DNA of 64,000 nucleotides, taken from positions 1 to 64,000 of the forward strand of contig NIVC01002806.1 in assembly GCA_002269645.1 (NCBI GenBank). The letters are read 5' to 3'. The position numbers and the translations under genes are program-made. The notes below the pieces were generated by a model. That model did no database searches and had not been told where the DNA came from. It worked only from the letters and a program-made list of their open reading frames with translations. This document shows positions 1 through 61,798 of the stretch, one piece after another (the first letter of the stretch is position 1; each line of letters begins with the position of its first letter). The DNA comes from Macrostomum lignano. Its lineage: Eukaryota.

Positions 1-991
1 AGTGAATGACCGCGTGGGGGATTTAGGGTTAAAGGCCTGAGATAAAAAGTAATAGTCACCGGAGTCGGAGGTAAAATGTCTGTCTATTTTATGTACATCA
101 AGGCTGAAGTATGGATCTGTAGCTCTTCTTTTGGTGTCTTTCTCTAGCTCTCCAGGTAGATATAAAAAGCGTAGAAACTCAGAGTTTGTCAGTATGTATG
201 GTGATTCAACTCCTGGAAGCTTAGGGTAGTTCGAGGTGTGTTTTGTGTTGTGTGTGTTGTGTGGGGTTGTCGTGTTGTTGTCTGTTCTATGAGATGCCTT
301 AAGTTCGACAGTGTCTTGTTTAATTGCATGGGATGGTTTCAATCCAGTCATGCGTGTGACTTCATTGTTCAGTTGCTCTATAACAGGGGAGTCTTTCTGT
401 CCACTTGGTATAGTACTGCCCCGCACTCAGTTTGAGTTCTTGCGCTGTCTGCTTAGTGAATAGTCTCTTGGCTAGAATTAGATTGAATCTTTCCACAAAA
501 GCCTGGTCTCTGTGCAAGTTTGTTCTGCCATAGCGAATCTCTGTGTTTTTCTTTTCCATAAGGGATTTCACTACACCCATGAATTCCTTACCCGGGTCGG
601 TCATAAAGATTTGGGGGTATGTGAGCGGAGAGTTTTTATAAATATCTTGCAGTGCGCTGGCAACAACCTCTGACTTCTTCGTCTTGAGTGGGCGAGCTTC
701 CTTATATCTGGAAGCAATGTCAATAATTGTAAGAGCATACTTGTAGCCTGAGTCGTTGGGGAGAAACAAAAGATCTGCTTGGTGCGCTTCATTAGGTTTA
801 TAAATACTGAAATGGGGCCTTTCAAATTTTACTGGTGGGAAATAGACTTGAAAGACAGCCTGCTTAGAGAGCCATTTTTCTACTGTAGCTTTTGGCTCTT
901 TACTCAGCTCCATGAGTTTACTAACAGCATTTTTGCCTACAAAGAATCCTTTGTCGCTGTAGTAGAGTTTTTTAAGTTTCTGATCTGTCAT
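1..991 (-). pseudogene. Polinton-type retroviral-like integrase (rve), copy A; frameshifted near 385 and running off the window start
   Basis: ORF 362..991 has the DDE triad context HQADLLF / FMTDPGKEF / VERFN. A 2-nt deletion versus copy B (CCC ACT GTT becomes CCC TGT) shifts the frame after WTERLP. Confidence 0.9.
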
Positions 992-1021
992 TTATTTAAA
1001 AAGAAAATTTTAAATAAAATA
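992..1021. promoter_or_regulatory. 30-bp AT-only-like divergent intergenic spacer between integrase and PLA2 start codons, with an 11-bp inverted repeat
   Basis: TTTATTTAAAA (991-1001) / TTTTAAATAAA (1008-1018). Each ATG is preceded by TTTTAAATAA on its own strand. The spacer is conserved at 9356-9385. Confidence 0.5.
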
Positions 1022-1333
1022 ATGCAGCGCTCTGGTGGTAAAATAGATTCACATGGACTGATAGAAAAGCTTCCTCATCCAAACAAAGGCTGGACACTTC
1101 CCGGCTATAAATATTGCGGGCCTTTGAATCCACTTAAAATACAGTTAGATAAAAACAATAATCCACATCCTGGGCATGAGCCTGTGAACGAGCTAGACTC
1201 TGTCTGCATGTGGCACGACGTTAAGTATAGAGATTTTCCTGAGGAGAAGAATCGCTGGGACAAAGAAATGCTCAGGAGACTCGACAATATAGGGGCTTCA
1301 AGCGGATTTCGTGAGTCGATTGCTCGAAATTAG
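1022..1333 (+). CDS. Parvovirus VP1u-type phospholipase A2 protein (PLA2X-like), copy A; C-terminus cut by a 1-nt deletion near 1328
   Basis: LPGYKYCGPLN Ca-binding loop and D..C.WHD..Y catalytic motif. Comparison with 9386..9886 shows the frame continues as LVKAVIFGKKKLGLGV if one base is restored. Confidence 0.85.
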   Translation: MQRSGGKIDSHGLIEKLPHPNKGWTLPGYKYCGPLNPLKIQLDKNNNPHPGHEPVNELDSVCMWHDVKYRDFPEEKNRWDKEMLRRLDNIGASSGFRESIARN

Positions 1334-1975
1334 TCAAGGCGGTTATTTTTGGTAAGAAAAAGCTGGGGTTGGGGGTCGCGGTTGTTTGGGGGCGGGCTTT
1401 GTGTTGCACACGCCAAGTAAAGAATTAGGAAGACTGCTGAAAGAGCTGGGGTTGAGAGAGCAGAATGATTCAAGCAAGAAAATTCAGCTGGATTAGCGGC
1501 TGTTTGGGAGAAGAGTTAAGTTTTCTGGCCTTCTGGCCTTCGCTTCTCTTCTCTCCACACAAGTGTACAGTCTTGAGCACACTGGTTTCGGTTACAATCT
1601 CTCTTTCCACCATGCCCTTCTCCTTCATACTCCTCACCTCGCGCTATGCTCTGTGTACAGAGAAGTCTCACGCCTCATGCTCTATCGTACACTGAGCTAT
1701 ATCGATTGTTTTTCCCTGCTTGACTCCAAGATTGTACAGTCTAGAATTTTCTGGAATTTTCTAGCTGTATAGCTGTATTTAAGCAAATGCAGAAACACTC
1801 GGGTTGATTCTCCCCGCATATGCCATCAACTGCGACTGAGAAACGACGACTGCAGGAACTTAAGCACGCTGAAAGTGATCTAAGAAATAGTCCGCCAAAC
1901 TAGAAGATTAGAAGACAAGAAGATTTAGAAAATGGAAGTCGAGTGGAATCTTCATTTGACAGATAAGCAAGGCCT

Positions 1976-2608
1976 TTGTGCCATGCTACAAAGAGTTTTA
2001 CAGGATATTCCGTCACATCTACAAGCAAGAAGAAGAGAGGAACTAACCACCTTTTTCGGTCTAGAAACTGGCGACCTACCAATCGAGTTTTTCGCCATGG
2101 CCCTGATGATATCGCCGCAGCGAATGAAGCGCAAAATGTGAGTAGCGAAGAGAAGAAGGCGGCGGCTCTGCAGAAGAAGATGGCGGATCTGCAGATATTC
2201 AGGGAGAAGTTGTACGCATCCCGCGTAACACTAGCTGATCAGCTGATGGACGCTGTTGATCACCAGCTTCCATCTGGCGAGCAGAACATCATCACTAGGG
2301 TGAAGGCGGCTCTAGCAAAATACAAGAAGACTCAAATTGGAGGTCTACATTGGATTCTCGAAGTTGGGCGGCTGCTAAAAACTTATCGCACCGAGAACTT
2401 TGGACAAGATGTTAAAGTGCGGTTCGCCCATTTGTGTAAAAATGTAAACATCCAGGAATCAACTGGCTATTTGTACATTCGTCTGTACAAACTGTCTGTT
2501 ACCTACCCAGGCTTAAGACAGGTGTCAATGCCAATTAGGGAACTAAACTCTAAGATGAAGTTTCTAGAAGAAATTTTGGCCAGTGATCCTGCGTGGAAAG
2601 TTGTGTAA
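1976..2608 (+). CDS. Unknown helical protein, possible HTH-type DNA-binding protein; true 5' end uncertain (possibly frameshifted from ATG 1820)
   Basis: 210-aa ORF. The C-terminal half aligns by eye with ORF 10556..11194 (8/32 identities ungapped around RLYKL...YPGL...P...MK) and occupies the same slot. Confidence 0.6.
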   Translation: MCHATKSFTGYSVTSTSKKKRGTNHLFRSRNWRPTNRVFRHGPDDIAAANEAQNVSSEEKKAAALQKKMADLQIFREKLYASRVTLADQLMDAVDHQLPSGEQNIITRVKAALAKYKKTQIGGLHWILEVGRLLKTYRTENFGQDVKVRFAHLCKNVNIQESTGYLYIRLYKLSVTYPGLRQVSMPIRELNSKMKFLEEILASDPAWKVV

Positions 2609-2635
2609 TTTTTTAATTCAGTTCATTTAGAATTT

Positions 2636-3057
2636 TTCTAACGCGTTAGAATTTCAAAGAGAAGATTCAACAACTGGAGACAGCCGATTGGTTAAGTAGA
2701 GGAAGGTAGCAATTTTCTCAGTACTGTGTGCAACTCAGTCGGTGGGTTTTAAATTCTAACGCTGTTAGAAATTTCTATGTGAAAAGTTTCCCGCAAGATA
2801 AGCTTGGGCACACCAAATTTTCACATAGAAAATTCTAACGCGTTAGAGAATCTAGCTGCTGGCTCAAAGGAACGCTAGGTTGGCTCTGTATGGTTAAATA
2901 GAGGGGGTAGAAATTTTCTAACGCCGTTAGAATTTTCTATGTGAAAAGCTTCCCGCAAGATAAACTTGGGCACACCAAATTTTCACATAGAAAATTCTAA
3001 CGCGTTAGAGAATCTAGCTGCTGGCTCAAAGGAACGCTAGGCTGCATGGCTCTGTAT
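2636..3057. repeat. 162-bp tandem duplication with five TTCTAACG(N)CGTTAGA palindromes and nested inverted repeats
   Basis: Palindromes start at 2636 (perfect 16-mer TTCTAACGCGTTAGAA), 2754, 2833, 2916 and 2995; the period is 162 bp. A TTCTATGTGAAAA...TTTTCACATAGAA stem occurs twice. Confidence 0.9.
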
Positions 3058-3206
3058 GTTGTTGAAGAATTCTAACTCAGATCCTACATAGTGTCTGTTT
3101 TTTCTACCATTTTTGATACTCTTGTAATAGTTAATACATATCCTATCAGCTGTGCAACCGTTAATAAATATATAATTCTTACTAATGAATAATAAAATTG
3201 TTTATA

Positions 3207-3725
3207 TTTTTTCAATGGGTAAGGACCTTGCGCTGATGATTTAAAGTCTTAGGGATCTGGTTTCACGTTGCGGATTGAATGTGGGGAGAAGAATGCAGAT
3301 TATTTTCTGATTGTTTCGAAGATGCTATGGGTGGATGTCAGTGGATTATGTCAGTGTCAGTGAGCATAACAGGTGTCAGTGGACCCATATTCCCATATTC
3401 TGTCAGTCATAATATGGATGGATTTAATGGGATTAAAGTTTTCGGATCAAGTGCAACCCCTCCCCTTTTTCAAGATTCTGTCGGGGATAATATAGATAGA
3501 TTTAATGGGATTATGGAGGACGTTTTGTGAGCGGGTGCGACCCCCTTTTTTTCTTATTCTGTCAGGGATAATATGGAAGGATTTAGGTGGATTATGGAAG
3601 ACGTTTTGTTAGCAGGTGCGACCCCCCTTTTTTTCTGATTCTGTCAGGGATAATATGGATGGATTTAGGTGGATTATGGAGGAGGTGAAAAATTTTGTCC
3701 CAGAAGCCCCCTCATGCCTTCTACT
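3207..3725. repeat. Terminal region of Polinton-like copy A, with four ~80-bp subterminal repeats
   Basis: ATTCTGTC..GGATAATATGG units at ~3396, 3474, 3555 and 3637. Direct copy at ~12262-12773. Ends CTTCTACT. Confidence 0.8.
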
Positions 3726-3855
3726 GAGGAAAATCAGGCAGAGTGTCCCTCATAAATATTCCTCTAAAGTTTGGGATTTCCAGTTCGTTAGCCAAATCTT
3801 CAAGAAAGTTATTTGTCGTCATTTTTTATGAGGTTTATTAAACTTTCTCTCAAAC

Positions 3856-6800
3856 CTAAACCCAACTTCCACCTCCTAAACCTAACCTCCAGTGCCCGAA
3901 CGGTAGACTGTTAATATTGTCATCAAAAATGAATCTCTTGTTATCTGCACCTGACAGTCCAATCTTCTTTTGCTGAATTGTGTGAATAATATGGTTTTTA
4001 GATTGTAGCTTTGAGAACTCATGTGATGTCTTTTTGTTGCAATTCAAGGCGTCTCTGTATTCAGCTTCATTAATTTCCTTCCTAACCACACGTTTCGGAA
4101 TTCCCTTTGATTTTTTTATTGGGTCTGACGACTCACATTTTATAAAATAGGACTTTGCTCTCAACCCAATGAATTCAGTGATTATGTCACCAGCAATCTC
4201 GTCCTTCATTTTCCCAATCACTTTCTTGTTAGTAGCGTCAAACACTTGATCACCATTCTGTGTCCTGAAAGATTTATCATACTCAGACAAGTCAAACAAA
4301 TCTTTTTGCTGCAGCATGTCCTGATAAATGTCTTCGTTTGAATGTCCATAATAAAACTGTCTGTGTCAGTGTACAAGAGTTTCATTTTATCCTTGTACTG
4401 CTGCTTCATGCCATAGAAGAACTGGTACATCAGACGTTTTGATTCATCGAGAACAGTGACACCTGTATAGATCGGCTTGCGCAGCGTCACCTTGGTTTTG
4501 TAAAATATGATCACACCAAGTAGCTATTAAAGATATGGAGTTCTTTGAATGTTGGCTTTGACATATTTGCCTGAATAACAGCAGGCTCTGATGAGGTAAC
4601 AAGTTTCAGGTTTGTTCTTTTCCGCTCATTTTCAAGAGTCTTGCCATAGACGGAGTTGTTGGCTAACTTAAAGAGGTTCTTGTCAAAGTCGTTGGTTGCT
4701 TTGGTCCTAAACTGGGTGTTCTTATCAATGTAGGGTTTCATCCACGCTTCCTCTGTAAATGTAAGAGCCCTGTGAACTTTGGTGACCCTGCAACCAGTGA
4801 GATAAAATACTGAAGCAGTTTGTAATGGATTTTGTAACGTGTCTTGTTGTTTAGATTCTGTGTTAGTTTCTCTGTATGTTCTTTTTCTGTTCCTGACAGG
4901 TGCCAAGTTCCATTATTATCATTGGGAGTTTCGATTATTTTCGGGCACTTGATGTTCTCTGGGAAGGGTGGAAAGTCAGAGAAATAGTCGTGAAGCTCTG
5001 GTGGAATGTAAACATCAACCTCATAAATGGCAGCCAATGAAAAGTCCTGTTTGAATTCTGATGAGGGTAGCCATCGAAAATCTCTAACTGGAAGATCTTG
5101 ACTCATCGCCCACCCGTAGAGATTATTAGCGTCCAAGTAAGTAATGTAGTTTGAGGGCTGCTCCTTATTGTAAGATCCAATGTAGGGGTTGTTTGCTTTT
5201 GCATACCTGTTAACGCAAATTGAGATCCCCCTCGCTTTGACGATTCGACAAAATTGTACATGTCAATGTCTGTAAGAAGTTCAATGTACCAATCTGGATC
5301 TTGATCCCATTTCATTTTAAGCAAAGATTCCCAGCTAGTGGCAGGGAGAGACACATAATGTGCTGGATCGAGGCCATATGCTGTGTACCAGGTGCATCTG
5401 AAGGTTTCAAACACATCAGCCAGCAGAAACACATCTGTGAAGAGGTAAAGCAGGTGATACTGGAAGAAGTTTTGACAATTAAAGTAATTATAGACATGCT
5501 TCGCGTGCTCATAGTCTTTGTCAGAGATTCCAGAGTCTGTTAGCTTTGAAAAGAACTTCTCCTGTGGTGGTAAACCTTCTTCAAATACGTGATACCCAGT
5601 AATATTTTCATAGGGGTAGAAGCCTTTGGTTCTCAGGAGTTTAAATGATTCATCAGTGTTGTTAATTTTACTTGCAAACATCTTTGTATATGTACATTGT
5701 TCATCTTTTAGATTCTTGCTTAGTTCGTCTAGACTGGCAGCTAGAAATTGATATGAATCCTTCAGTCTTATTTTACCTGTACCCGAATTATCCTGTTTAA
5801 TATCAACACACTTAAACTTCTCCTTGTTCTCTGCGATGCAATCAAGGTGTATGTCTGGAATCATGCCGATTTTTTCAACTATTAAATGCATGTCATAGTT
5901 CTTTGCGTTGTGACAAAATATCGTTAGATCATGAATGTTCGATTTTAGCTTTAGATTACAGGTGTTATGCGCTGCACCTCTAAATTTCCCAGTAAAGTGG
6001 CAGTGGTCCCTAACGGTGGGGTTTTTAATATTAGTGCAAGTTAAATGTTTCCTGCAGATGTGGCAATGAGTTGCTGATAGGAAATTGCTTTCATCCTCCT
6101 CAGTCATCATTATTGGAACAGGTTGAAGGGTGCTAATCACTTTTTGCAACTCTAACATTCTGGCAATAAACTGCTCCACACACTGCTCTCCAAAGAAATA
6201 ATTATACTCAACAAGTCCTTTTGTATTAATAAAGGCATATGCTACTGAATTGGGGATATGTTTTTGAGTTTGAGTTTGTTTTGAGTTGGAGTTTGTTTTT
6301 GAGTTGGAGTTTGTTTTTGAGTTTCTGGCACGATTGAGCATTCGAAATCAGCATATACAACAAATGGGAGCTTCTCCATCTTGTGATAGTTCTTAAACCG
6401 GAGATACTTCTCTTCAGCTGAAGGAAGAGAGCAGTTTGTCGGGTGATCCTCGCATGATAATTCATGCTCTGCTAGTTTTTCAAAGCGTTCAGGTCCACTG
6501 TAATGCTTAAGGCACAAGCGGCAGATGGCAACAGCCTCGTGATGATTATTCAACTGCTTGTGTATGAGTCTTGAAAGATCTTTAATCCAAACATAGTGAG
6601 CCTCCTCTAGTAAATTACCAATCACTAGAAGATCCACTTCAGTCCGCCTTTTCCCCTCGGGATCTAAAACGTCTTTGCTACATCTGACCGGTTGAACTTT
6701 CTCAGTTTTCTCACTCCACTCAAAGACTGTGATTCTAATTTTGTTATTAAACACTTCTTCTAGCTTTGGGATCTGAGAGATTGCCAAGCCTCCTTTGTCA

Positions 6801-7732
6801 AACCTGATTCCCTTCTTTTCGCATTCAATGAGATAGTAGTTAAAATAATTTTGATAATTTGAGGTTCTTTCGGGGTGGTGAGGGACACTAAAAAGTGCAG
6901 AAAGAACTGCCCATAGAGCACAGCAATTGTCTTTATTTTTAACATTTATGCAAGCTTTTTTACCGGCTAGCTTATGCGGGAGCTCTATATAAGAGGAGGC
7001 TTTAAGTGGGTCATATTTCATGACCCTGACAGTCGCTCTTTGAATCCCTCCCACGACCCATCCGGAACCTCTGGATGTAAACGCTTCAATTTTCTTATTG
7101 ACATCTTGAAGGAAAGGATCCAGTGTGTCTGTTGGGGTGAATGGCTTTGCCTTTGTTGTCATGTAATACTCGAGATGCTCAGTGGGTTTTGCAGGCATAT
7201 AAAACGCAATCTTGAATGATATCTGTAGTTTAAAGGTCTTGCGTGTTTTGAGTGTGTGATCAACAACTGATTGGATGCTGTCTTTATAGTCGTAGATGTT
7301 TGCGGTGGTACCGTTGGTGCCGTTAATTGGGATTGTGTACTCTATGTAATGTTCTGTAAACTTCGTCTGTGCAAAATTAATCTCTTCAGTGGCAAGCTCC
7401 GACTCTTTTAAATGGATTAATTGCTCTAATTTCTCTTGTTCCTGCTTATTTTGTGGGTACTTTGCTTTTTCACCAGTGAGAGTTTCATATTTGTTAACTA
7501 AGTTGCGACTCCTCTCTTGGTGTTCCTTTGCAGAATTTTTTATAGGCGCATACTGGTTTGATTCTAATTGATTGATGATTTCCAACTGTTTTTCATAGCT
7601 TCCCAGGTGACCAGGGTCGGTGTTGAACTTTTGTTTGCATGCTTCTCTTAGTGAATTACTTTTGTCTTGAAATGAGACGCCTTTTGAAAAATATTTGTTG
7701 ACTAAATCTCTTGCTGGATTAGCTTTTGGCAT
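3856..7732 (-). pseudogene. Protein-primed family B DNA polymerase (Polinton type) with embedded endonuclease VII-like domain, split by five 1-nt deletions
   Basis: ExoI YADFE, ExoII HNAKNYDMHLI, ExoIII YLFTDVFLLADVFE, motif A DANNLYGWAM, motif B KLANNSVYGKT, motif C YTDTDS, and CHIC...RDHCHFTGKFRGAAHNTCN. Frameshifts near 6280, 5226, 4794, 4513 and 4335; no in-frame stops once these are corrected. Start taken at ATG 7732 (MPKANP). Confidence 0.93.
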
Positions 7733-7855
7733 TTTTCTCGAAAATATAAAAAAAATTTTGAGGGTGACCACCCTGATAGAAAAGTTGAACTGTTTCTACA
7801 TCCTATAAGTAGTATTAGGTTTATGAAGCTGGATAAAGTGGGGTTTTAAACCTCA

Positions 7856-8302
7856 TCACATCCGCATTATTGTAAACCCAGCATTGTGCAGTGTCATGAT
7901 GGCTTTGACAATGTCAGACTTGCTTATAGAATTTTCATTCTCACAATCATCACGATCGGGGCAGCCCTCTCCTGCCTTAATTGTTATACCTTTGTCTCTT
8001 GCAATCTTTTGCAATTCCAGCTGGTGGGCTCTATCATTCCCAGCTTTAACAGCAGTTGCTACACCTCCAGCTACACCACCTGCGGCACTTACAGCGCCTG
8101 CAATGATCGGAATAAGAGCTGCTAATGGTAGGATTCCTCCTGACTTTTCATCTGTGATGCTGTGTCTTTGTTCATTACACTGAACTATTTGCTGCGTGGG
8201 ATCGATTTTTACTTTGACACCTTTAATTGATATAATACCTGGTTTCTTTGATTCAATGATATTATTGAGTTTATTGAGGGTTCTAGTTTCAATCTTTGTC
8301 AT
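7856..8302 (-). CDS. Adenovirus pX (Mu precursor)-like small protein
   Basis: SGGILPLAALIPIIAGAVSAAGGVAGGVA resembles the hydrophobic C-terminal segment of adenovirus pX (RGGILPLLIPLIAAAIGAVPGIA). Intact 148-aa ORF between PolB and integrase. Confidence 0.7.
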   Translation of the reverse strand: MTKIETRTLNKLNNIIESKKPGIISIKGVKVKIDPTQQIVQCNEQRHSITDEKSGGILPLAALIPIIAGAVSAAGGVAGGVATAVKAGNDRAHQLELQKIARDKGITIKAGEGCPDRDDCENENSISKSDIVKAIMTLHNAGFTIMRM

Positions 8303-8318
8303 TTTTTATTTTAATATT

Positions 8319-9355
8319 TTAATTAATTTCTGTGTCAGCTGGTATCACTAGGAGTTCAGCTCTAGTGAATGACCGCGTGGGGGATTTAGGGTTAAAGGCT
8401 TGAGATAAAAAGTAATAGTCACCGGAGTCGGAGGTAAAATGTCTGTCTATTTTATGCACATCAAGGCTGAAGTATGGATCTGTAGCTCTTCTTTTGGTGT
8501 CCTTCTCTAGCTCTCCAGGTAGATATAAAAAGCGTAGAAACTCAGAGTTTGTCAGTATGTATGGTGATTCAACTCCTGGAAGCTTAGGGTAGTTCGAGGT
8601 GTGTTTTGTGTTGTGCGTGTTGTGTGGGGTTGTCGTGTTGTTGTCTGTTCTATGAGATGCCTTAAGTTCGACAGTGTCTTGTTTAATTGCATGGGACGGT
8701 TTCAATCCAGTCATACGTGTGACTTCATTGTTCAGTTGCTCTATAACAGTGGGGAGCCGGTCTGTCCACTTGGTATAGTACTGACCACTTTTTAGTTTCA
8801 GCTCTTCAGCTGTCTGCTTAGTGAATAGTCTCTTGGCTAGAGTTAGATTGAATCTTTCCACAAAAGCCTGGTCTCTGTGGAGCTCAGTTCTGCCATAGCG
8901 AATCTCTGTGTTTTTCTTTTCCATAAGGGATTTCACTGCACCCATGAATTCCTTACCCGGGTCGGTCATAAAGATTTGGGGGTATGTGAGCGGAGAGTTT
9001 TTATAAATATCTTGCAGTGCGCTGGCAACAACCTCTGACTTCTTCGTCTTGAGTGGGCGAGCTTCCTTATATCTGGAGCAACGTCAATAATTGTAAGAGC
9101 ATACTTGTAGCCTGAGTCGTTGGGGAGAAACAAAAGATCTGCTTGGTGCGCTTCATTAGGTTTATAAATACTGAAATGGGGCCTTTCAAATTTTACTGGT
9201 GGGAAATAGACTTGAAAGACAGCCTGCTTAGAGAGCCATTTTTCTACTGTAGCTTTTGGCTCCTTACTCAGCTCCATGAGTTTACTAACGGCATTTTTGC
9301 CTACAAAGAATCCTTTGTCGCTGTAGTAGAGTTTTTTAAGTTTCTGATCTGTCAT
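8319..9355 (-). pseudogene. Polinton-type integrase (rve), copy B; 1-nt deletion near 9077
   Basis: ORFs 8966..9355 and 8319..8969 join into a full integrase when the base present in copy A (GGAAGC versus GGAGC) is restored. Confidence 0.9.
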
Positions 9356-9385
9356 TTATTTAAAAAGAAAATTTTAAATAAAATA

Positions 9386-9886
9386 ATGCAGCGCTCTGGT
9401 GGTAAGTTAGATTCACATGGACTGATAGAAAAGCTTCCTCATCCAAACAAAGGCTGGACACTTCCCGGCTATAAATATTGCGGGCCTTTGAATCCACTTG
9501 AAATACAGCTGGATGGAAACAACAACCCAAATCCTGGGCATGAGCCTGTGAATGAGCTAGACTCTGTCTGCATGTGGCATGACGTTAAATATAGAGATTT
9601 TCCTGAGGAGAAGAATCGTTGGGACAAAGAAATGCTTAAGAGACTAGACAATATAGGGGCTTCAAGCGGATTTCGTGAGTCGATCGCTCGGAAGCTAGTT
9701 AAAGCTGTTATTTTTAGTAAGACAAAACTGGGGTTGGGGGTGTACGCCGAGGGCGGGTGTTTGGGGAGAGAGGGCGAGTGCACGGGGAGAGAGGGCGAAC
9801 GCACGGGAGCAGAGTTTATTTTGTGCGCTCCTAACAATGAATTGGGAAGACTGCTGAAAGAGCTGGGGGTAGAAAGGGGCGCTTGA
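9386..9886 (+). CDS. Parvovirus VP1u-type phospholipase A2 protein (PLA2X-like), copy B, intact (166 aa)
   Basis: Same YKYCGP and WHD..Y motifs; C-terminal KTKLGLG. ATG 9386 lies inside ORF 9143..9886. Confidence 0.88.
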   Translation: MQRSGGKLDSHGLIEKLPHPNKGWTLPGYKYCGPLNPLEIQLDGNNNPNPGHEPVNELDSVCMWHDVKYRDFPEEKNRWDKEMLKRLDNIGASSGFRESIARKLVKAVIFSKTKLGLGVYAEGGCLGREGECTGREGERTGAEFILCAPNNELGRLLKELGVERGA

Positions 9887-10555
9887 ATCGGGAAGGGCAT
9901 CAGCAAGTGTGGATTTGAGTAAGTACAGTTTTTTATTCCCTAAAGAGTTGCGCACAAGAGAGATTCTCATTCTCCAGAGAGCTAAGAGCAGAAAATAAAA
10001 AGTCAACCGCTTCGCCGCCATTAGCATGCATGGACTGTGTATGTTTGATTGATATTGATTATTTGCCTAATTGTGAGGCCAGTTGGCCCGCCTAGTTGGC
10101 CTCGGCCCGCCGATTTGGCCTCGGAATGTGGCCCGCCTTGTTGGTCTATACGGTATGAAGATATGGGGGGGGGGTAGAGAGAGGCGTTTGAGTCGGGAAG
10201 GGTTTAACTATTATTCTCAGCCCTGGCCGAACGCAACAGCTGCATTTGAAAAGTTGAGAAGCAGAGAGAGGTTATGTGGTTGATCGACTGCTATTTGCTT
10301 AAGGAGCGTAGCCTTTTAATCGATTTTGCGAATGTACAACTTCCACGCATGCTTTCCTTTCCGCTTTGGCAACCCCAATCAACCAGTCAGTTCATAGCAC
10401 GAAAGACTACCTAGTGTGGAGACGGCTTTCCTTTCCAATTGCCAAAATATTGGCGCGGCGCAGCAACCACTACCACCTCAAACCCTACATGACGGTTTTT
10501 AAGTAAAGGCGGAAGCCAGCCAGCCCTCTTCACTCAATTCCTATTAGAAAACGCA

Positions 10556-11194
10556 ATGGCTGAAAGAATTACAGTTAGAACCGCTCGACTTAACGCATTT
10601 GTGAACGATTTGATTAATTTAACACCTTTAGAGCAGAGAGATGGACTCCAACAATTGTTTGAAAATTTCAAAGAAGAGGAAATACAGCACGATTTGGCTC
10701 GCATGGAAGGACAAACCCAACGCGATATTTCCACCTACGAAGCACGAGTAGCTGCTGTTTTCCAGCGCCTTCGTGCTTCGTATGGAGTCGAAGTTCAAGC
10801 GCCAACAAGGGAGCTATCAGTTATCGAGGAAAGTATGCACGCGTTGAACTTTCGTCATCTACCCACTGTTCTACCCACTGTACAGAACATGCTGGTGGAA
10901 TTATTTCAGCATGAGAATTTTTATGATAAGCGCACATTAATTGTGTCATTTTACATCGGCTCCATCATTCACCGGCTCAAACGTACACTAAAGTCGGTTC
11001 GGAATATAATTCGACGGCTTAATCTACAAGTATCGAGGCAGACTTTGGACAAGAAGTTGAGAGTGTACGACTTATTGACAGAATTTCCGGCCTTACAACG
11101 CTGCGCCGTACCAGTTAGCTTCGTTCTGGAAAATATGAAGCTCATTCGGGACGAGGTTCGCTACCAGGCGGATGCGGCGATGTGGAGACAGTGA
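10556..11194 (+). CDS. Unknown 212-aa helical protein, distant homolog of 1976..2608, possible DNA-binding protein
   Basis: Clean ATG-to-stop ORF with protein-like composition. Shares the C-terminal pattern G..I/L ... R.Y.L...[YF]P.L.....P.......MK...W with the copy A ORF. Confidence 0.7.
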   Translation: MAERITVRTARLNAFVNDLINLTPLEQRDGLQQLFENFKEEEIQHDLARMEGQTQRDISTYEARVAAVFQRLRASYGVEVQAPTRELSVIEESMHALNFRHLPTVLPTVQNMLVELFQHENFYDKRTLIVSFYIGSIIHRLKRTLKSVRNIIRRLNLQVSRQTLDKKLRVYDLLTEFPALQRCAVPVSFVLENMKLIRDEVRYQADAAMWRQ

Positions 11195-11213
11195 CGGTTA
11201 CGGGTTATGACTT

Positions 11214-11606
11214 AGCCAATTTTAAATTGAGACGATCGCAATATCAGTCTTGAGTTATTTTTAGTAACAAGTCATTTCCACTCTCTCTTTAGTATAATCT
11301 TATCAACCAATGAGAACGCTTAGAATGGCTACCAGTGGGGCCAGCCAATTTTAAATACGACCGTATTAGCAGTCTTGAGTTATTTTTAGTAACAAGTCAT
11401 TTCCACTCTCTCTTTAGTATAATCTTATCAACCAATGAGAACGCTTAGAATGGCTACCAGTGGGGCCAGCCAATTTTAAATTGACACGATCGCAATATCT
11501 ATCTTGAGTTATTTTTAGTAACAAGTCATTTCCACTCTCTCTTTAGTATAATCTTATCAACCAATGAGAACGCTTAGAATGGCTACCAGTGGGGCCATTT
11601 TTAAAT
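11214..11606. repeat. Three tandem ~125-129-bp direct repeats immediately downstream of ORF 10556..11194
   Basis: AGCCAATTTTAAA at 11214, 11343 and 11468. The core TCTTGAGTTATTTTTAGTAACAAG...CCAGTGGGGCC is near-identical in all three; unrelated to the copy A array. Confidence 0.92.
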
Positions 11607-11986
11607 GTTAGTACTTTCACACGCCTAACGCAATTGCCTAATTATTTCTGCAAAGTTATAGTAGCTGTGACGATGTCGTTAGCATCTTAAATTTTTAGTT
11701 TCTATCTGAGTTTTTATTACTTCAAATTATTGTAGTTGATTAATTTGCAGGTTTCCCAGCTATTAATTCAATGTAATTTATTTAGAAAAAAATGTACTTG
11801 AAGTTTTATTTATTTCAGTCCAAGTTGTTATTACTTTTTTGATAGACATCTTGACAATTTAAATTGTTACCTCGCGCTCGTTTTTTGTACTCTCCTCAAC
11901 TCGGCATTTTGTCTCGTACCATGCGTGTCAACACTACTAATAACTGAACTAGCTAACCAATAAATAAATAACTAATAAATAAACAA

Positions 11987-12241
11987 CTAATAATTAATTA
12001 ATCGCTGACTACATCTCGAACTCGCTACGTCACAGTAGCTGTCGTAATCTTTTACGTAGGTTACTCCATACTTATGAAACCAGTGTCTTTGGAGAGCTAG
12101 ATTAATATTAGGGACATTGATATCAACGTCGGGCCAATATTTTCTCATGTACTCGCTGCATTCTAGTTTGCATCGGTACTTACTCTTGTAATTAGGCTCG
12201 TGCGCTTTGTAATAAGAACCTGGAGAGACAACTGGAAACAT
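11987..12241 (-). CDS. Hypothetical 84-aa Tyr/Cys-rich protein next to the terminal region of copy B
   Basis: ATG-initiated ORF starting at the edge of the terminal homology block; no recognisable motif; absent from copy A. Confidence 0.35.
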   Translation of the reverse strand: MFPVVSPGSYYKAHEPNYKSKYRCKLECSEYMRKYWPDVDINVPNINLALQRHWFHKYGVTYVKDYDSYCDVASSRCSQRLINY

Positions 12242-12261
12242 TTTTAGAGAAAATTTAATTT

Positions 12262-12773
12262 TTTTTTCAAAGGGTAAGGACCCTGGGTTAGGGGGTTTAA
12301 AGTTTTAGGGATCTGGTTTCATGTTGCGAATTGAATGTGGGGAGAAGAATGCATATTTTTTTCTGATTGTTTCGAAGATGCTATGGATGGATGTCGGTGT
12401 CAGTGAGCATAACAGGTATCAGTGGACACCTGCTCTGATTCTGTCAGGGATAATATGGATGGATTTAGGTGGATTATGTTCGAAGTTTTCGGAGCAAGTG
12501 CGGCCCCTCCCCTTTTTCATGATTCTTTCGGGGATAATATGGATGGATTTAATGGGATTATGGAGGACGTTTTGTGAGCGGGTGCGACCCCCCTTTTTTT
12601 CTTATTCTGTCAGGGATAATATGGAAGGATTTAGGTGGATTATGGAGGACGTTTTGTTAGCGAGTGCGACCCCCCTTTTTTTCTGATTCTGTCAGGGATA
12701 ATATGGATGGATTTAGGTGGATTATGGAGGAGGTGAAAAATTTTGTCCCAGAAGCCCCCTCATGCCTTCTACT
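12262..12773. repeat. Terminal region of Polinton-like copy B, with four ~82-bp subterminal repeats
   Basis: Units at ~12437, 12521, 12603 and 12685. Direct repeat of ~3207-3725. Ends CTTCTACT. Confidence 0.8.
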
Positions 12774-13074
12774 CAACAAAATTCTACAAAAACGTGTTTT
12801 GGCCTTTCATTTTTGTTCTTAAATCTAATAATGAAAAATAATATTTTTCACTCCTCCCATTGCTTTCCTAATTATTGCGCAACTTTTGTTCCTTCGGCCT
12901 TTCTTTTGCTCCGCTTGTTTGCGTGTGACCGACAATAAAGTCGAAATAAAATTTCTATCAAAATAATTTTGATTCCATTCGCTACTGAACGATTTCGGCT
13001 GGCACTGCGAGAGTGCCTTTAATTGCTGGCTCTGCTCTCTGCTGTCAGCTCGCTGGGGAGTGCAGCGGGAATCA

Positions 13075-13470
13075 GGATGAGGATGGGGATTGGGGTGAGG
13101 ATTGGGGATGGGGTTGAGGGTTAAGGATGGGGAAGTAGAGTGGGGATGGGAAGTAGATTAGGGATGGGAAGTAGATTGGGTAGGGAAAGGAGATTGGAGA
13201 TGGGGACGAGGGTTGGGGATGGGGAAGGATCGGGATGGGGAAATAGATTGGGGATGGGGAAATAGATTGGGGATGGGGAAAGGATCGTGATGGGGAAATA
13301 GATGAAATAGATTGAGGATGGGGAAAGGATCGTGATGGGGAAATAGATTGGGGATGGGGAAAGGATCGTGATGGGGAAATAGATTGGGGATGGGGAAAGG
13401 ATCGTGATTTGGGAAATCGATTGGGGATGGGAAAGGGATCGGATGGGATAAGAATTTGGATGTGAAATGG
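13075..13470. repeat. Low-complexity GGGGAT/GATTGGGGATGGGGAAATA repeat
   Basis: Degenerate purine-rich tandem repeat; similar GGGGAT runs at ~16240-16370. Confidence 0.85.
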
Positions 13471-14164
13471 AGATGGGATATTAAATAGGAAATAATCGTG
13501 AAGGTGAATACAAAATGAGTCCGATATCAACCCACACTTCGCGGGTTCCGGATAGTAATCTAGATAGCAGAGTAGTCTAGCAAATGGAATGCACTAAAGC
13601 CGATAGCCGAGCACTAAAAGTTCAACAATGCAGCTCTTCATAGCCGAGCAATCAGACGCGGGTCTGCAGTATTGAAGAGGACGGCGGGGTCACTCATGTC
13701 AGTCACAGTTTCTTGGAATGGGATTCAGAGTGACAGGGGCGAGGCTGTGAGTGAAGCCAGCGAGTTAGGGAGGCGGCCGGACTCGGGTATCGACTGCTCT
13801 CAGCCTAGCCGGATTAATCATAGGCTCAGTCGCGTGATGAAATTAATTTTGCTCTCACACTCCGCCGGCACGCCCCTGCCGCCTCGAGACGGGAAGAATC
13901 CCGCACTGGACTGGAAGGGCCCCAGACTCCCCAGGACCTGTCTCCGCGGAGATGAAAGTCTGCTTCCTTTGGAGCCTTGAGTCCGGGGATTTCGGATGGG
14001 AAATCTGGGATGGGGATTTTACGAGGCTTGTTACTGCCGCATTGTTCCCTCGGGAAAGGGGGGCCAGCTTTATTGACCATGAAAGCAAGTCAGAGCCCTG
14101 AACTTGTTCAGTGCCGACTACTCAGACTCCATCTGCATCCCGAATCCTTAGACTGAATTCAGAT

Positions 14165-18217: not shown

Positions 18218-19416
18218 CCCACTGGATGTTGGATTAGCGCAACTCACCCCAGCAGGGGCTGTCCTGTACGCCAAGACAGATTGATGCCCTAAGCGGAGTG
18301 CCGCAGCGCAGAATGCAAACACAGTCGAAATGGATGCCAGGCGATGAAGCATGTGACATTTTGTCCTGCCGGGCAGCCTGCCTCATCCAGTTTCTTTAGC
18401 GGCAGGCAGTCAGGTTACGCGCCGGCTGTGGCGGCTCTGCAGGAACCTTCTTGTCTATCGCTCTGTAACCGCGGCGGGTGATAGAGATCCCCGCTGCAAC
18501 ACTGTGCCCCTCTGCCTACCAAAAAATCCCCAGGAAATTTTCCCCATTCCAGCCCGACTGGATTTTCTACCGCGACTCGCCCCGCCCTGACTGACTGATT
18601 GCGATGCAGAAAGTTCCTCGGCCCCCGCCCCTCCCCCCGGCTGCTGCGGCGGTCCCAGAGAAGCTGAAGGAAATCCAAGGCGCGTTCAAGTGCCGGCCGG
18701 CCACTCGGGGGCGCAGAGAGAACAAAATCCCGGGGATAATTCTGTTCTGCCGCCCCCCCCCCTCCCAGCTTCTCCTCCCCTCCCCGCGCCGCCGGCCTCA
18801 GTAATTACCGAGCCGGAGTGAAGGGGCCGCCGGCAGTTAAGGGAGAAATCTCCCTCTAGCCAGCCAGAGGAAGGGGGAGCAATTTCTCCCAGACCAGACC
18901 AGTCGCTCTCTGCCCCCGCCTCGTCCACTTGGCCGGTGACCCCCGTTCCCCCGTCACCTGATATCGGCGATATATGACTCGCCAGCTTCAAGTCAATGAA
19001 GCGCGTCCCTCAATTACTGGCCAATTACCCCCGGACGCCCGGGTCTGCGGCCCCCCGCTAAGCGCTACCTTGCTTGAGCTGCATCCAAGCCCAGCTTAGC
19101 CGCGTGTAAAAAGAATCCTCAGCATCCTTGCCTGCGCTCCCAGCCGCAAACTGGACTGGCTAAAAGTCAGCCGTCACAAAAAAGCCGGGCAGCTCAGGGC
19201 ATTGATTTCCCCTCCCCAGCGCTGCCGCTTCTTCAACTGGACAAAAATCTCCGGCTGACAGCTTGAAAGCCGCGGCTGCGACCTGCATGGCAGGCCATGA
19301 AAACGGAGTCGAATAGGAGCCAAGGCTGTTCGTTTCATCCAGTTGAAAACTTTTGACAGCCAAACATGACGAATGACCGCCGATCGAACAGCTTCGTTTG
19401 CACTTCCTCTGCGCAG

Positions 19417-22400
19417 ATGGCGGCGGACTGGTGGCTCTGCTGCCTCCTGCTGATTGCAGCGGCGGCGGCGGCGGCCGCGGCCGCGGAGCTGAGTGACTGC
19501 CAAACGGAGCGCCGGCACAGTCAACTGGGCGACAGCGACTGGCGGGACGGCGTCGACGCTGAACTGAGCGGCGCCGAGGACACGTTGGTGTGCGGCCGGC
19601 TGGGCCCCCCCACGGCGGAGCTGCCCGCGGCAGGCTTCGTCTCCCTTCGAGTGCGCGGCGGCCAGCTGCGGGATCTTGACGACCTGCTGGCCCGGCTGCC
19701 CGACTCTGCCCGGCTGCGGGAGCTCGTCGTTGCCGGCGGCAACATCCGCCGGCTGGTGGTCACGCCGCTGAATCGACGTCGACGGCCGGCCTGGAGTCGC
19801 CTGCGGCGCCTCGACCTCGTCGACAACCGCGTCGCCACTATCGAGCCGGACTATTTCTCCGCCTTCCCGGACCTCGCCGGCCTCCGGCTGAGCGGCAACC
19901 GACTGCGCACGCTGGACGCGGCAACGGCTTGGCCAGCCGGGCTGCTCGACCTCCGCCTGGACGGCTGCCAGCTGGCCTCGCTCGACGCCGACTTCTTTGC
20001 GAGCCTGCCGCCGCGGCTCCGACGGTTGGATCTAGCGAGAAACCGGCTCGACCGGCTGCCCGACCTTGACGACGCTGGCGGAAGTGAAACCGGAAGTGAA
20101 ATTGAAAGTCAAAGCGCTACCGGAAGCAGGCCCCCAGAGATGCTGTCGGAGCTGGACCTGTCGGACAACCTGTTCACCTCCGTGCCATCGGGGCTCGTGC
20201 GAAGCCTTCATCGCCGAATCGATCGGCTTCGCATGGACGACAGTCGGCGCCTGTTGCGCCTGGCGCCGGGCGACCTTCGGTTCGGCGCCGCCGACTCCGC
20301 CACCTCGGTACTGCGGGTGTCGCTGCAGCGCTCCGGCTTGCGAGTGGTCGACGCTGGCGTCACCAACTGGTCGACGCTGCTGGAGCTGGACCTCAGCGGC
20401 AGCCGCGACCTCGTTTTCCTGCATCCCGATGCTGTTGGCGGTGGCGCCAGCGGTGGCGGCTTTGAAAACAACACCTCAAATCGCCTTCTCCGACTGGAGG
20501 ACTGCGGCCTTCGCATCTTTGCGGCCGCCGAGTCGGCTGCCGGCTCCCGGCTGCTCAGCGTCGGCCTGGCCGGAAATCCCCTCTGGTGCGTCTGCGACAA
20601 CGCCTGGATCGGCCGGCAGTTGCGGGCACGAGAGTTCGGCCAGGCCATCCGGGTCCGGTTCCTGCGGCCCGATGAGCTTCGCTGCATCCGCTGCGGAGCC
20701 GGACAGGCGTGTCCGGCTGACGGGGCCACCGTCAGAATTCTCAACTGGACAGGTGAGCTGATGTGATCTTGAGCTTCCTGGATTTGATGTTGAATTCCCC
20801 TGAAGATTTGATGCTGAATACCCCTGTAGATTTGATGTTGAATTCCCCTGTAGATTTGATGTTGAATTCCCATACAGATTTGATGTTGAATTCCCCTGCA
20901 GATTTGATGTTGAATTCCCCTGCAGATTTGATGTTGAATTCCCCTGCAGATTTGATGTTGAATTCCCCTGCAGATTTGATGTTGAATTCCCCTGTAGATT
21001 TGATGTTGAATTCCCCTGCAGATTTGATGTTGAATTCCCCTGCAGATTTGATGTTGAATTCCCCTGTAGATTTGATGCTGAATTCCCCTGTAGATTTGAT
21101 GTTGAATTCCCCTGTAGATTTGATGTTGAATTCCCCTGTAGATTTGATGTTGAATTCCCCTGTAGATTTGATGTTGAATTCCCCTGTAGATTTGATGCTG
21201 AATTCCCCTGTAGATTTGATGTTGAATTCCCCTGTAGATTTGATGTTGAATTCCCCTGTAGATTTGATGTTGAAGTCCCCCACCCATTCGAGGTTGAATT
21301 CCCCAACCCATCTGAGGTTGAATTCCCCAACCCATCTGAGATTGAATTCCCCAACCCATCAACTTTAAACTTTGAAAACACCAGCTGGCTGCTGCAGGAA
21401 GATGACCTGCAAATCAGCAGAATCTCACTTGATGCTTGCTGCTCCAAGAAAATCACTGAAAGCTTTTTGCTTTCGGGAGAGGAGCGCCCCACCCCCTCTT
21501 CCCGATCGATGAGAGCCGCAGCTGACTGCAGCTCGGCGAGGCGCTGGAGTGCTTTGAGACCGGGACTCAAGGACTGGGATGCGGGTCCGGCTAGAGCAGA
21601 AATCCATTTAGGAGTTGCTCAGTGCATCTCCGCCCCCCCCCCAAGGTAAGCCAGGACCGATTCTTCTCGTTTCTCCACAGCAAAGGGTCTTCATTAGCAG
21701 CCACCCCTGCCCATTGAGTCGATGCTATGCAAGGGGGGGGGGGCTTCCCTCAGCCCGCCCTTCTGCATGTCAGTTTTGCCAAGAAAAAAAGAGAAACAGC
21801 AAAAACCCGTCGGGCTTCTGTCCGCCTCCGTTACTTAAGCGACGCTTATTCAAGATGTGGCTGCTTGAGTAAAAGTGCTCTCGCGTCATCGATGCGCCCG
21901 AGCATGAGTTGGCTGGACTTGAGTTGGCTCACCTGTTGCCACCGTGGGAACCGGCGTTGAGTCCTGCTGATGGATGCGTGGGAATTTATGAACTAATCAG
22001 CTGGTGCTATTCGAATGTATCCGATTGAGAACTGCTCGAGCTGCTCAGTCCCGATGTACCAATGCATCCATCGCTTCACGCGTCTCAGATCCAACTCTAT
22101 CCACAGACCCAACTCTATCCACACAGGCCCATCTCTATCCACAGACTCATCTCTATCCACAGACTCATCTCTATCCACATACCCATCTCTATCCACAGGC
22201 CCATCTCTATCCACAGACCCATCTCTATCCACAGGCCCATCTCTATCCACAGACCCATCTCTATCCACAGGCCCATCTCTATCCACAGGCCCATCTCTAT
22301 CCACAGGCCCATCTCTATCCACAGGCCCATCTCTATCCACAGGCCCATCTCTATCCACAGGCTCATCTCTATCCACAGGCCCATCTCTATCCACAGGCCC

Positions 22401-50200: not shown

Positions 50201-52017
50201 CGATTCTTGGACGACACTTAGGCGACTCTTACTTATTTCTCTGTGTACTCGTAGCTCTTCTTCGTCGCACTAGACGCGCTTGAGTCGTTAAGAAGTCACA
50301 GAAATCGCCATGTAACAAAACAAAATTTTTGTCTTCTGCAGAGGTCGGCAAACATGCGGCCCCCGAAGCCTCTCTATCCGGCCCTCGGGTTCTTTGAAAC
50401 TTCACAATAGCAATCCCGCCTTCTCACGGTCTGTCTCTTCCGCGGTCTCTTCGTTTTGCGCGGCGCTCTTTATGTGCCAGCGGCCCAGGCTCGATTCCAA
50501 GTGCAGTCAAATTAATTCGTGGCTAAATTGAAATTTCAGCTTGGCTCTGCTCGTGCAGTTGACGCCCCTGAGGGCTAACCCCAAAGGCACAGTGAAGTGT
50601 ACATGCCTAACGATAAAATAAAGTTAGGGCCGCTGTACACTCCAGTGTAAGTGTGTGTGCCTGCTCAGGGGAGTCAGCGGAATGGACAGTAATGCCTCAC
50701 CCGGCTGTGTGACAATGTCGCTTAAAGTGCGCCAGGGTGCAGACCCTTTTTACTACTTTTAGTAGTAGTGCTGCGCAAATTTCGCCCGCTATTCCAACCG
50801 ACCAACCAAACAAACTCACAGACCGCCGGTATTCGCCGGCCGCGTAAAGTGGTGGCCGTGCCGTGGCACCTCAAGCCGTCGCCGCGCGACCTTGCCGTTG
50901 CCGGCTACAGTCTGGTGATGGCGCCGGCCACGCGGCTGTACCTGGACCACCGGCAGGAGCCCGACCCCGAGGAGCGCGGTCTCTACTGGGCCGCCAATTT
51001 CACCGACTTGTACACCGTTTTCTCTTACGACGCCAAAACCGACGCCGCCGCGGCTGGTCCCGACGCTGACATTCTCGGCATCTCCGGCGCGCTCTGGACA
51101 GAGACGGCGCGCCAGCCGGTGCAGGCTTTTAGTCTGCTGGCGCCGCGCGTTCTGGCGCTATCCGAGCGCGCCTGGCACCACGCCGACTGGGAGGGCGCGG
51201 CGTAAGTAGGGAAATAAGACGCTGGCCTCTGGACTCAAATAGAAGTGACTTCAAAACAGCTCCATAAGATTTCCTTCTGCAATAGTATCCCGTGAGGTCC
51301 GTAGGATCAACTTTGGTTAACTTATTACCTCTGGGGGGCAATATTATCAGAGTTTTAATGTGTGTCAGCTGCCCGTGACTTGGGAGAGCTAAAAAATACG
51401 TATTTTATAGCAATGGATAAAATGAATAAAGACAGGTATTTGCCATAGACAGTAGATGTCGATTTTTGTCCCCTACCATATACGAGAGTGGGGACCACTC
51501 TCGACAGTCGATACTACAATCAGCTTACTTGGCTAACGTTTTGGCTGCATAATTCGTACTTTATTATTCATTTTCAGTCCTACAGACGGCGGCCAGGCTG
51601 CCAAGGCGCGGAGCCGCGACTACGCCGAATTCGTCAGCAGCGTCGGCCACCGGGAGCTCGGCCGGCTGGCCAGCTTCGGAATTAAGTTCCGTCTGGCGCC
51701 GCCCGGTGCCCGCCGGCTCGGCGGAGACAGCGGCGGCTTCCTGCTGACGCACGAGCTGCCCGGCGTGCGGCTGTTCTATTCGCTGGAGAGCGGCGCCACG
51801 CGCCGATGGGTCGAATCGGACAGACTGGTCGAGTGGCCGTCCGGTGTCCGACGAGTCCACCTCATGGCGGCGTGAGTTGCTAAGCTGTTTGTTGAATTTT
51901 AATTTTGCATTGCATTTTGATGCCAGCTTGTTGAACCCGGAATATTTCAGCTTCTCTCTGCCCGGCCACAAAGCTGGTTACTATGCTCAAAGTCGAATTG
52001 TTCACATCGATCGCTGA
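44278..52017 (+). CDS. Beta-N-acetylhexosaminidase, GH20, chitobiase-type four-domain architecture, ~902 aa; exons 44278-44374, 45879-46425, 46889-47294, 47613-48131, 48634-48881, 49945-50095, 50822-51201, 51578-51871, 51951-52017
   Basis: N-terminal hydrophobic anchor, CHB_HEX-like domain, DYPRSQYRGLMLDVARNF, LHLHLSDDEG, PELDTPAH, catalytic HFGGDE, YLDH..E, LWTE, LSERAW, C-terminal REL..L...G..FR..PPGA. All phases are consistent (2709 nt). Exon 5 acceptor could alternatively be 48640. Confidence 0.9.
44715..45710. repeat. 11-bp intronic minisatellite (CTGACACTCAT)
   Basis: Directly visible in intron 1 of the GH20 gene. Confidence 0.96.
46505..46620 (+). mobile_element. tRNA-derived SINE head (intronic remnant)
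   Basis: A box TAGCCTAGTGG, B box GGTTCGATTC, Lys(CTT)-like loop GACTCTTGA. No acceptor-stem closure. Followed by GTGTCGAGCAAGATACTCAAC, which resembles SINE central domains. Confidence 0.65.
46660..46830. repeat. 26-bp tandem repeat (GTAGTGTAGAGTTGGCAGTGCAGCTG)
   Basis: Directly visible. Confidence 0.9.
47317..47577. repeat. 33-bp intronic minisatellite (CCTCACAAACAGGCCTCATTAAGTCCCAACAAA)
   Basis: Directly visible, ~8 copies. Confidence 0.94.
48950..49862. repeat. ~23-bp intronic minisatellite (GAATCGCCCTATAGACACACTCA)
   Basis: Directly visible. Confidence 0.95.
50665..50745. repeat. Short dispersed repeat; second copy inverted at ~58900-58987
   Basis: GCCTGCTCAGGGGAGTC.GCGGAATGG.CAGTAATGCCTC...ATGTCGCTTAAAGTGCGCCAGGGTGCA matches the reverse complement of 58900-58987. 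Confidence 0.8.
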
Positions 52018-54168: not shown

Positions 54169-54658
54169 GTGTATACGATAGTCTGTTTCGCTTGAAAACC
54201 GTAAAATATCTAAAACAGGATCAGCCAGTGTGTTGTGGCTGAAGTATGCTACTGGTGCAGGGACGGTGCATGTGCCCAGATTAGCCGGCAGATTCTATTT
54301 ATTCTCTGCTTACTTCCCACATTGTTTGCCAACCCAAACTTCATTGACGCTTATTGTTTGCCCGATCCCTAGACTCTTCCGCAGTCACATGCAGCCATGA
54401 TCCTCAAACAAAGCTTGTTAAGTCAATCAATCCAGTCTACCACGGAAAATGAATATGATAGATTTGGTCGCTCATTCAGTCAATACGCTTGCAAAGGCAA
54501 TAATTATCGTCATTCGTCCCTACGGATCAGGATACGGTTTTTTGTTATTCGGAGGTAACTATATTTTTTCCGTCTTTTAGAAGCCTGATTGGTGGTAAGC
54601 CCTGCTTGCCATGCCTCAACCTCAATTTCTGCCGGCTTAAGTCACTACCCTATCTCTA

Positions 54659-54830
54659 GCAACTACGCCAGCTACCGAATTTTTAATATTGACTGTGCCA
54701 CATATACAGCTTAAAATTTCTGTAAAGCGACCTTAGTTAAGCGTGTGCCATTGCTTTTCGGTGACCTTGTCGTGACCTTGTAGACGTGGCATAGTCAATA
54801 TAGTAGAAATTCGGTAGCTGGCGCGGTTGC
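54659..54830. repeat. Imperfect inverted repeat (~24-bp arms, MITE-like/hairpin)
   Basis: GCAACTACGCCAGCTACCGAATTT / AAATTCGGTAGCTGGCGCGGTTGC (22/24), plus an inner ATATTGACT / AGTCAATAT pair; no TSD seen. Confidence 0.6.
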
Positions 54831-61256: not shown

Positions 61257-61798
61257 GATGGAGACTGGCCTCTGTGACATCTTCACATTGTACGTGGCAA
61301 CTATTCCACTTTTTTGCTATTTTCTCCCCTACTGCGCTTGCAAAAATAGTCTCGCTCGACTCTATCGCATGTTGTTTGCCAAGGCAAACTGGCGAATGAT
61401 AAGAGAGTCTTGCCTTTCTGCCTGCCTCAAAAATCAGACACGAGCTAATATTACATGTATTGGGCTTTCTGGCAGTCAACCGGGAAGCCGTGTTGGTCAA
61501 CAGAATTCACCCTGTTCGCCACTAATTAATGTTTAAACTGCAAATCATCTGACCCAGGATATACCAGACTGATGGATTGGCTGTTTGCTGATCATTTTTG
61601 CTATCTGCTGGACAGTCAACACTTTTTATTTGGTGAAGCAAGTCAAATTTTTGGGGCAATTGCAACTGCAGCGAAAAACTAGCTTATGTCGACTGAGAGC
61701 AGGAAATGAAAAATATAATATCCCGAAGCAGACTGTTGTCTAGCTGGGAGTCTCTCGCAGGCTTGGGGTTGTCTACAGATGGGTCAGTCAGACCAATA

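Follow-up and report, generated by a model that had tools for sequence, protein, structure and literature searches.

A Polinton copy inserted in the protease gene of a second, full-size copy in Macrostomum lignano

Two termini and an interrupted protease gene

Positions 3726–12773 of a 64,000-nucleotide stretch of Macrostomum lignano DNA (the window; bases 1–64000 of contig NIVC01002806.1, here C2806) carry genes of a Polinton/adintovirus-type element, copy B, and abut the right-hand end of another copy of the same family, A (Table 1). The window begins at contig base 1, with no upstream DNA there. The right-hand terminus of A ends at 3725 (...CTTCTACT, then GAGGAA) and that of B at 12773 (...CTTCTACT, then CAACAA), and the two share the end sequence ...CATGCCTTCTACT. 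The stop codon of the B gene for DNA polymerase B (PolB) lies at 3856, 130 bp past the A terminus, and no inverted terminus was found at the A/B boundary: a repeat scan of the window gave eight inverted pairs, none of them joining these ends. The open reading frame (ORF) list, Pfam and tblastn agree on a content of PolB, pX-like, integrase, PLA2 and cassette genes, while the capsid, penton-like and ATPase proteins of the family gave no tblastn match anywhere in the 64-kb window.

From the window alone, the original prediction had described a Polinton-like unit of ~9 kb with virion-entry proteins and no visible capsid, penton, ATPase or protease. The coordinates of both termini with their flanking hexamers, the 130-bp spacing without a left terminus and the gene content are all borne out, as is the absence of the first three structural genes from the window. 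The protease, in contrast, is represented by its residues 1–32 at 3727–3822, and the unit is not self-contained, having one terminus only and continuing on overlapping contigs. Window positions 1–13497 correspond to C1684:15595–29091 at 99.8% identity (over 9.1 kb, 17 gaps and one mismatch), and C1684 runs 15.6 kb further left. The end of a third contig, C2829, overlaps C1684:1–14226 (~14.2 kb) at 98.6–99.4%, the B/A junction included.

On C1684, copy A is bounded by a left terminus at 3567 and a right terminus at 19325 (15,759 bp), and this single contig reads GAGGAA-AGTAGA...TCTACT-GAGGAA, an exact 6-bp target-site duplication (TSD). Its left end comes directly after ...TTCTTA-GAGGAA, and GAGGAA-AATCAGG... 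comes directly after its right end; the uninterrupted protease gene that A itself carries reads ...TTCTTA GAGGAA AATCAGG.... In the window, a minus-strand frame opens at 3822 and runs into the A terminus. It corresponds to residues 1–32 of the 133-aa protease and is 100% identical to the uninterrupted copy over these codons. Codons 31–133 lie directly to the left of A (C1684:3259–3567 and C2829:82844–83152), again with 100% identity, and PF00770, the adenovirus endoprotease family, scores above its cut-off on the uninterrupted 133-aa copy as well as on this second B piece. The catalytic His, Asp and Cys motifs occupy positions 49–107, and the break caused by A falls upstream of them. Since protease codons and an exact GAGGAA are found on both sides of A, we conclude that A sits in the protease gene of B. 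We are highly confident that window positions 3726–12773 are the right-hand part, 9,048 bp long, of B, a full-size Polinton/adintovirus into whose protease gene another member of the family, A, has inserted.

We considered whether the nest could be an assembly artefact in which two similar copies were mis-joined, given that three overlapping contigs, differing by many single-base gaps, make up the locus and that similar ends number in the hundreds in this family. Repeat mis-joins, however, occur at homologous positions and not between two termini and coding sequence, and here the 6-bp duplication is exact and no protease codon is lost. Exact-pattern searches moreover placed the left A/B junction on two contigs (C1684 and C2829) and the right junction on two (C1684 and C2806), all of them one locus as judged by contig overlaps at 99% or more, although the contigs probably derive from one read set. 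We regard a mis-join as highly improbable.

Copy B beyond the contig edge

In the whole 764-Mb assembly, only one site, C2829:75556, has CAACAA directly before the terminal motif; it lies 7.6 kb to the left of A. The left terminal inverted repeat (TIR) of B starts there at C2829:75562 and differs from the right TIR (window 12034–12773) by one mismatch in 740 bp (99.9% identity). Between this TIR and A at 83152 lie ORFs of 287, 428 and 409 aa, an ATPase gene and the second protease piece, giving B a length of 7,590 + 9,048 - 6 = 16,632 bp. Copies A and B each have capsid and penton-like genes as well as genes for the ATPase and the protease.

The B ATPase matches PF04665 (27.4 bits against a cut-off of 22.8; A32/FtsK-like) and has the Walker A sequence GSSGSGKT together with a Walker B motif. 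The 428-aa ORF matches PF21738 at E=5e-5, below the cut-off; PF21738 was found in 9/9 of its homologues. Foldseek searches with its predicted structure (predicted local distance difference test, pLDDT, 54) returned the double jelly-roll capsids of Sputnik, iridovirus, PBCV-1 and mavirus, with the Sputnik major capsid protein at the top (E=2.7e-10), and all 21 of the matches listed are viral capsid entries. On this combined evidence, we take the 428-aa ORF to encode a double jelly-roll major capsid protein. The adjoining 287-aa ORF has no Pfam match; its Atlas language-model neighbours are unnamed viral clusters at 0.98, and its single-sequence model has a pLDDT of 36. We call it penton-like by position and size only. 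PF03175 scores 39.7 bits on B PolB against a cut-off of 25.8, an N-terminal 496-aa PolB piece being without a Pfam match, and PF00665 is above cut-off on the 345-aa integrase of C1684, the two window pieces giving no Pfam match alone. Many of the frame breaks in the window versions of PolB and integrase are probably sequencing errors, since C1684, which covers the same DNA, lacks some of them. An Rfam scan at gathering score of the 49 kb covering A and B gave no group I intron, and none of the scanned ORFs matched a TBP family in Pfam.

An empty site for B is present on C301, in which the left flank (1,500 bp at 98.6%), CAACAA and the right flank follow one another with no element DNA between them. 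By our arithmetic, the chance of two independent 6-bp matches, GAGGAA and CAACAA, is roughly (1/4096) squared; elsewhere in the family, paired ends show an exact TSD in 7/11 cases.

Several observations weigh against the reconstruction of B. Compared with a clean site, the C301 empty site carries two extra A's after CAACAA. B is not contained in any one contig: the link to its left end is made by the C2829–C1684 overlap, and overlaps of this kind can join haplotypes where an assembly is rich in repeats. The capsid model is of modest quality at pLDDT 54, and the penton assignment relies on position, size and language-model neighbours, the structural model being uninformative at pLDDT 36. Finally, no short-read contig bridging the A/B junction was found among the 32 pieces listed out of 480, a result that is uninformative either way. 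The short-read contigs covered 4 of 24 listed public runs, among which there was no RNA run. In these contigs, termini leave to varied flanks at 3725–3730, and the protease continues at 3726 in three runs.

The original prediction had offered two explanations. One was a head-to-tail array of a ~9-kb satellite that lacks a capsid, keeps PLA2 and pX and borrows the capsid of a helper. Within the window alone, two right-hand termini 9,048 bp apart with no capsid, penton or ATPase between them do fit such an array. The unit, however, starts with a cut protease gene instead of a terminus, A extends over 15.8 kb with all structural genes, and the terminus–protease junction is found at one locus only, with a 6-bp duplication inside a gene; both duplications predicted for a nest are present. 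We consider the satellite array practically excluded at this locus. The other explanation, A nested in B, was right in every prediction: a left TIR preceded by GAGGAA is present for A on C1684 and C2829, capsid genes lie upstream on C1684 (A) and C2829 (B), and CAACAA recurs farther out, before the left TIR of B on C2829. The headline of a capsid-less unit gives way to the structural genes and the matching left TIRs with TSDs, a result that the original prediction had itself named as decisive against it. The apparent 9-kb capsid-less unit comes about through a contig edge combined with a nested insertion, an ordinary case of nesting.

As to how the nest formed, Polintons are described as making 6-bp duplications and encoding an rve integrase (PMC8097293, PMC8502044). 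From the nesting and this biology, B would have entered host DNA first, with duplication of CAACAA. A would then have integrated into B through the retroviral-type integrase of the family, duplicating GAGGAA and cutting the B protease ahead of its catalytic motifs, which start at residue 49. The target in B was probably struck by chance, in a genome with ~175 copies of the family.

Table 1. Features of copies A and B in the window
Feature	Position	Strand	Basis or remark
Right-hand 3.7 kb of copy A	1..3725		Whole copy on C1684:3567-19325, 15,759 bp
A integrase, two frames in window sequence, runs off contig start	1..991	-	ORF list, tblastn
A PLA2-like gene, earlier end than B copy in window	1022..1333	+	ORF list
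A-type variable cassette ORF	1932..2608	+	225 aa on C1684; 142-aa piece open in window
A right TIR with 82-bp subterminal units	3194..3725		75.6% like A left TIR
TSD GAGGAA of A	3726..3731	+	Second copy before A left TIR, C1684:3561-3566 and C2829
Codons 1-32 of B adenain-like cysteine protease, broken by A	3727..3822	-	tblastn, 100% identity
B protein-primed PolB, several frames in window	3856..7732	-	PF03175 E=3.9e-10; tblastn
B pX-like virion core protein gene, 148 aa	7856..8302	-	PF05829 E=4.4e-7
B retroviral-type integrase, two frames in window; one 345-aa ORF on C1684	8319..9355	-	PF00665 E=2e-9 on C1684 ORF
B PLA2-like gene, 166 aa	9386..9886	+	PF08398 E=9.1e-14
B-type variable cassette ORF, 212 aa, possible helix-turn-helix protein	10556..11194	+	Weak PF21517 match E=8e-4, below cut-off
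B right TIR, 740 bp	12034..12773		99.9% identical to left TIR at C2829:75562
TSD CAACAA of B	12774..12779	+	Other copy before C2829 left TIR; one copy at C301 empty site

Self-nesting, short copies and terminal repeats in the family

A 19-base terminal motif has 349 exact matches, which corresponds to ~175 copies or, at 16 kb each, 0.37% of the genome. The number of self-nests expected by chance is 0.3–0.6, a rough figure, as redundant contigs inflate the terminus count. An insertion upstream of the catalytic His, Asp and Cys motifs of the protease raises the possibility that the family prefers to insert into its own kind, or into its own protease gene, and so inactivates resident copies. Among 83 of the 349 termini (about a quarter), however, one outer flank matched family DNA, over 106 bp and without forming a clear nest, against 0.3 expected (P=0.26 for at least one); the reference comprised two cassette types, so that nests in other types would be missed. 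No second terminus was found at this position of the protease. In a search with window 3726–3900, 40 of 264 candidates were scored and 10 loci fetched: the sequence to the left is protease in eight, and the segment abuts a terminus in two (the window and C1684, which are one locus). The 83 flanks sampled thus give no sign of self-targeting above chance, and we think such a preference very unlikely. Loci on C217, C27 and C716 were followed as possible self-nests, and none is clear. On C716, termini at 368625 and 392104 lie 23.5 kb apart and their outer flanks start as reverse complements (AACAAA/TTTGTT); the inner ends match in inverted orientation, as in a possible inverted duplication or an assembly fold-back.

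Short copies were sampled as five TIR pairs of 3.6–12.5 kb, picked from the first 100 termini listed, out of 349. Capsid sequence is kept in 5/5, and PolB is absent in 4/5, which again argues against a capsid-less satellite, although such a form may occur among the other 249 termini. The copy that comes nearest to that idea is a 12.5-kb deletion copy on C744, which keeps PolB, integrase, PLA2 and pX and is without penton and protease genes, with partial capsid and ATPase genes; yet it occurs as one deletion copy and forms no array. The remaining four include an 11.2-kb TIR-bounded copy (C276:289398–300645) with TAGATG on both sides, which contains two inverted capsid-plus-penton arms and one ATPase gene and is without PolB, integrase and protease. 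In its two-arm structure it resembles a copy-back defective genome. The other three (C33:768924–777592, C105:570682–574517 and C544:473028–476600) have capsid and penton-like genes without PolB, and the C544 copy is flanked by an exact ACATAC duplication.

The two-arm copy, the 3.6–8.7-kb capsid copies without PolB and the unlike TIRs of A despite its exact TSD are leads towards the idea that the family may replicate as free linear genomes, which would recombine and shed defective, helper-dependent derivatives that integrate. Such derivatives would keep the capsid arm and lose the polymerase, the reverse of the satellite idea. Post-integration deletion and gene conversion account for these leads at least as well, and we hold the reading as a whole to be unlikely.

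The TIRs of A (window 3194–3725 and C1684:3567–4072) are 75.6% alike, with three subterminal 82-bp units at one end against four at the other. In 6/7 other paired copies with matching TSDs, the ends likewise differ in unit number or by 5–15%, a pattern that suggests recombination or conversion between TIR subtypes. TIR divergence is no clock in this Polinton family, since A, although inserted after B, has TIRs that resemble each other far less than those of B do. At C326:569400–571463, a copy has a TIR in which the 82-bp subterminal unit is expanded at length, as far as the contig end.

Known elements, cassettes and neighbouring sequence

On every feature settled (TIRs, 6-bp TSD, PolB, rve integrase, ATPase, protease, capsid and a size in the range ~13–25 kb), B is a member of the Polintons/Mavericks. 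A size of 12.7–24.6 kb and TIRs of 46–1,447 bp are reported for animal members (PMC8097293), and A (15.8 kb) and B (16.6 kb), with TIRs of ~530–740 bp, are within these ranges. As described there, the elements also share TIRs, 6-bp TSDs, AG-starting ends, pPolB, integrase, ATPase, protease and a major capsid gene, with the penton-like ORF as the candidate minor capsid gene here, and many degraded copies and secondary insertions occur. They differ in that the end motif here is AGTAGA//TCTACT and theirs is (AGT)2 or (AG)3, that the gene order here is unlike the vertebrate two-module plan, and that the secondary insertion here is a copy of the same family (PMC8097293).

The alpha adintoviruses, as described in PMC8502044, have in common with the present elements a PF03175-type PolB, rve integrase, FtsK/A32-like ATPase, adenain, hexon-like capsid, PLA2-like and pX-like genes and integration in an animal genome bounded by inverted terminal repeats. 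PLA2 and pX belong to the accessory genes known from adintoviruses (PMC8502044), so that finding them here is nothing unusual. The adintovirus PLA2X is described as having a C-terminal pX (PMC8502044), whereas here the Pfam pX match is on a separate ORF on the opposite strand, and the PLA2 ORF has no pX match at E<=0.05, the pX model being short and insensitive.

In Polinton-like viruses and endogenous virophages of protists, genes are reported to be disrupted by nested retrotransposons of 4–9.5 kb (PMC12220804). The likeness lies in a mobile element inside, and disrupting, a gene of an integrated polinton-type element; the inserts there are retrotransposons in protist hosts, whereas the insert here is a sister Polinton. 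Of 11 papers listed on nested insertion and Polintons, none, to go by title or the start of its abstract, deals with a Polinton inside a Polinton, which is no proof of its absence from print. The locus matters little as a discovery: it holds no capsid-less satellite, and a self-nest is about at chance level for ~175 copies. It does document Polinton integrase activity cleanly, through two exact 6-bp duplications and an empty site, and it illustrates that a contig edge together with a nested copy can mimic a reduced element.

Outside the terminal repeats, window 1–1376 (A) and 8364–9741 (B) are 95.6% identical. The region from PLA2 to the right TIR (window 1666–3200 in A and 10385–12030 in B) is a swappable cassette. 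The A-type cassette with its 225-aa ORF recurs on C142 and C1190, and the B-type with its 212-aa ORF on C326 and C744; their proteins are weakly alike at the C-terminus (24% over 50 aa, E=4e-4), and the A-type ORF had no family match with E<0.01. Three tandem units of ~129 bp follow the B cassette ORF (window 11214–11597), and a duplicated, partly palindromic unit of ~160 bp follows that of A (window 2754–3058).

To the right of B, a GC-rich host ORF of 466 aa (window 19366–20766, plus strand) has a signal-peptide-like start and, by eye, leucine-rich repeats. Many minisatellite arrays with units of 8–33 bp occupy window 13000–50000 and 52700–63730, and the same regions contain four dispersed copies of a pair of ~150–200-bp repeats spaced 3.1–4.0 kb apart. 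Inverted arms at 50654–50744 and 58896–58987 may bound a transposon of 8.3 kb.

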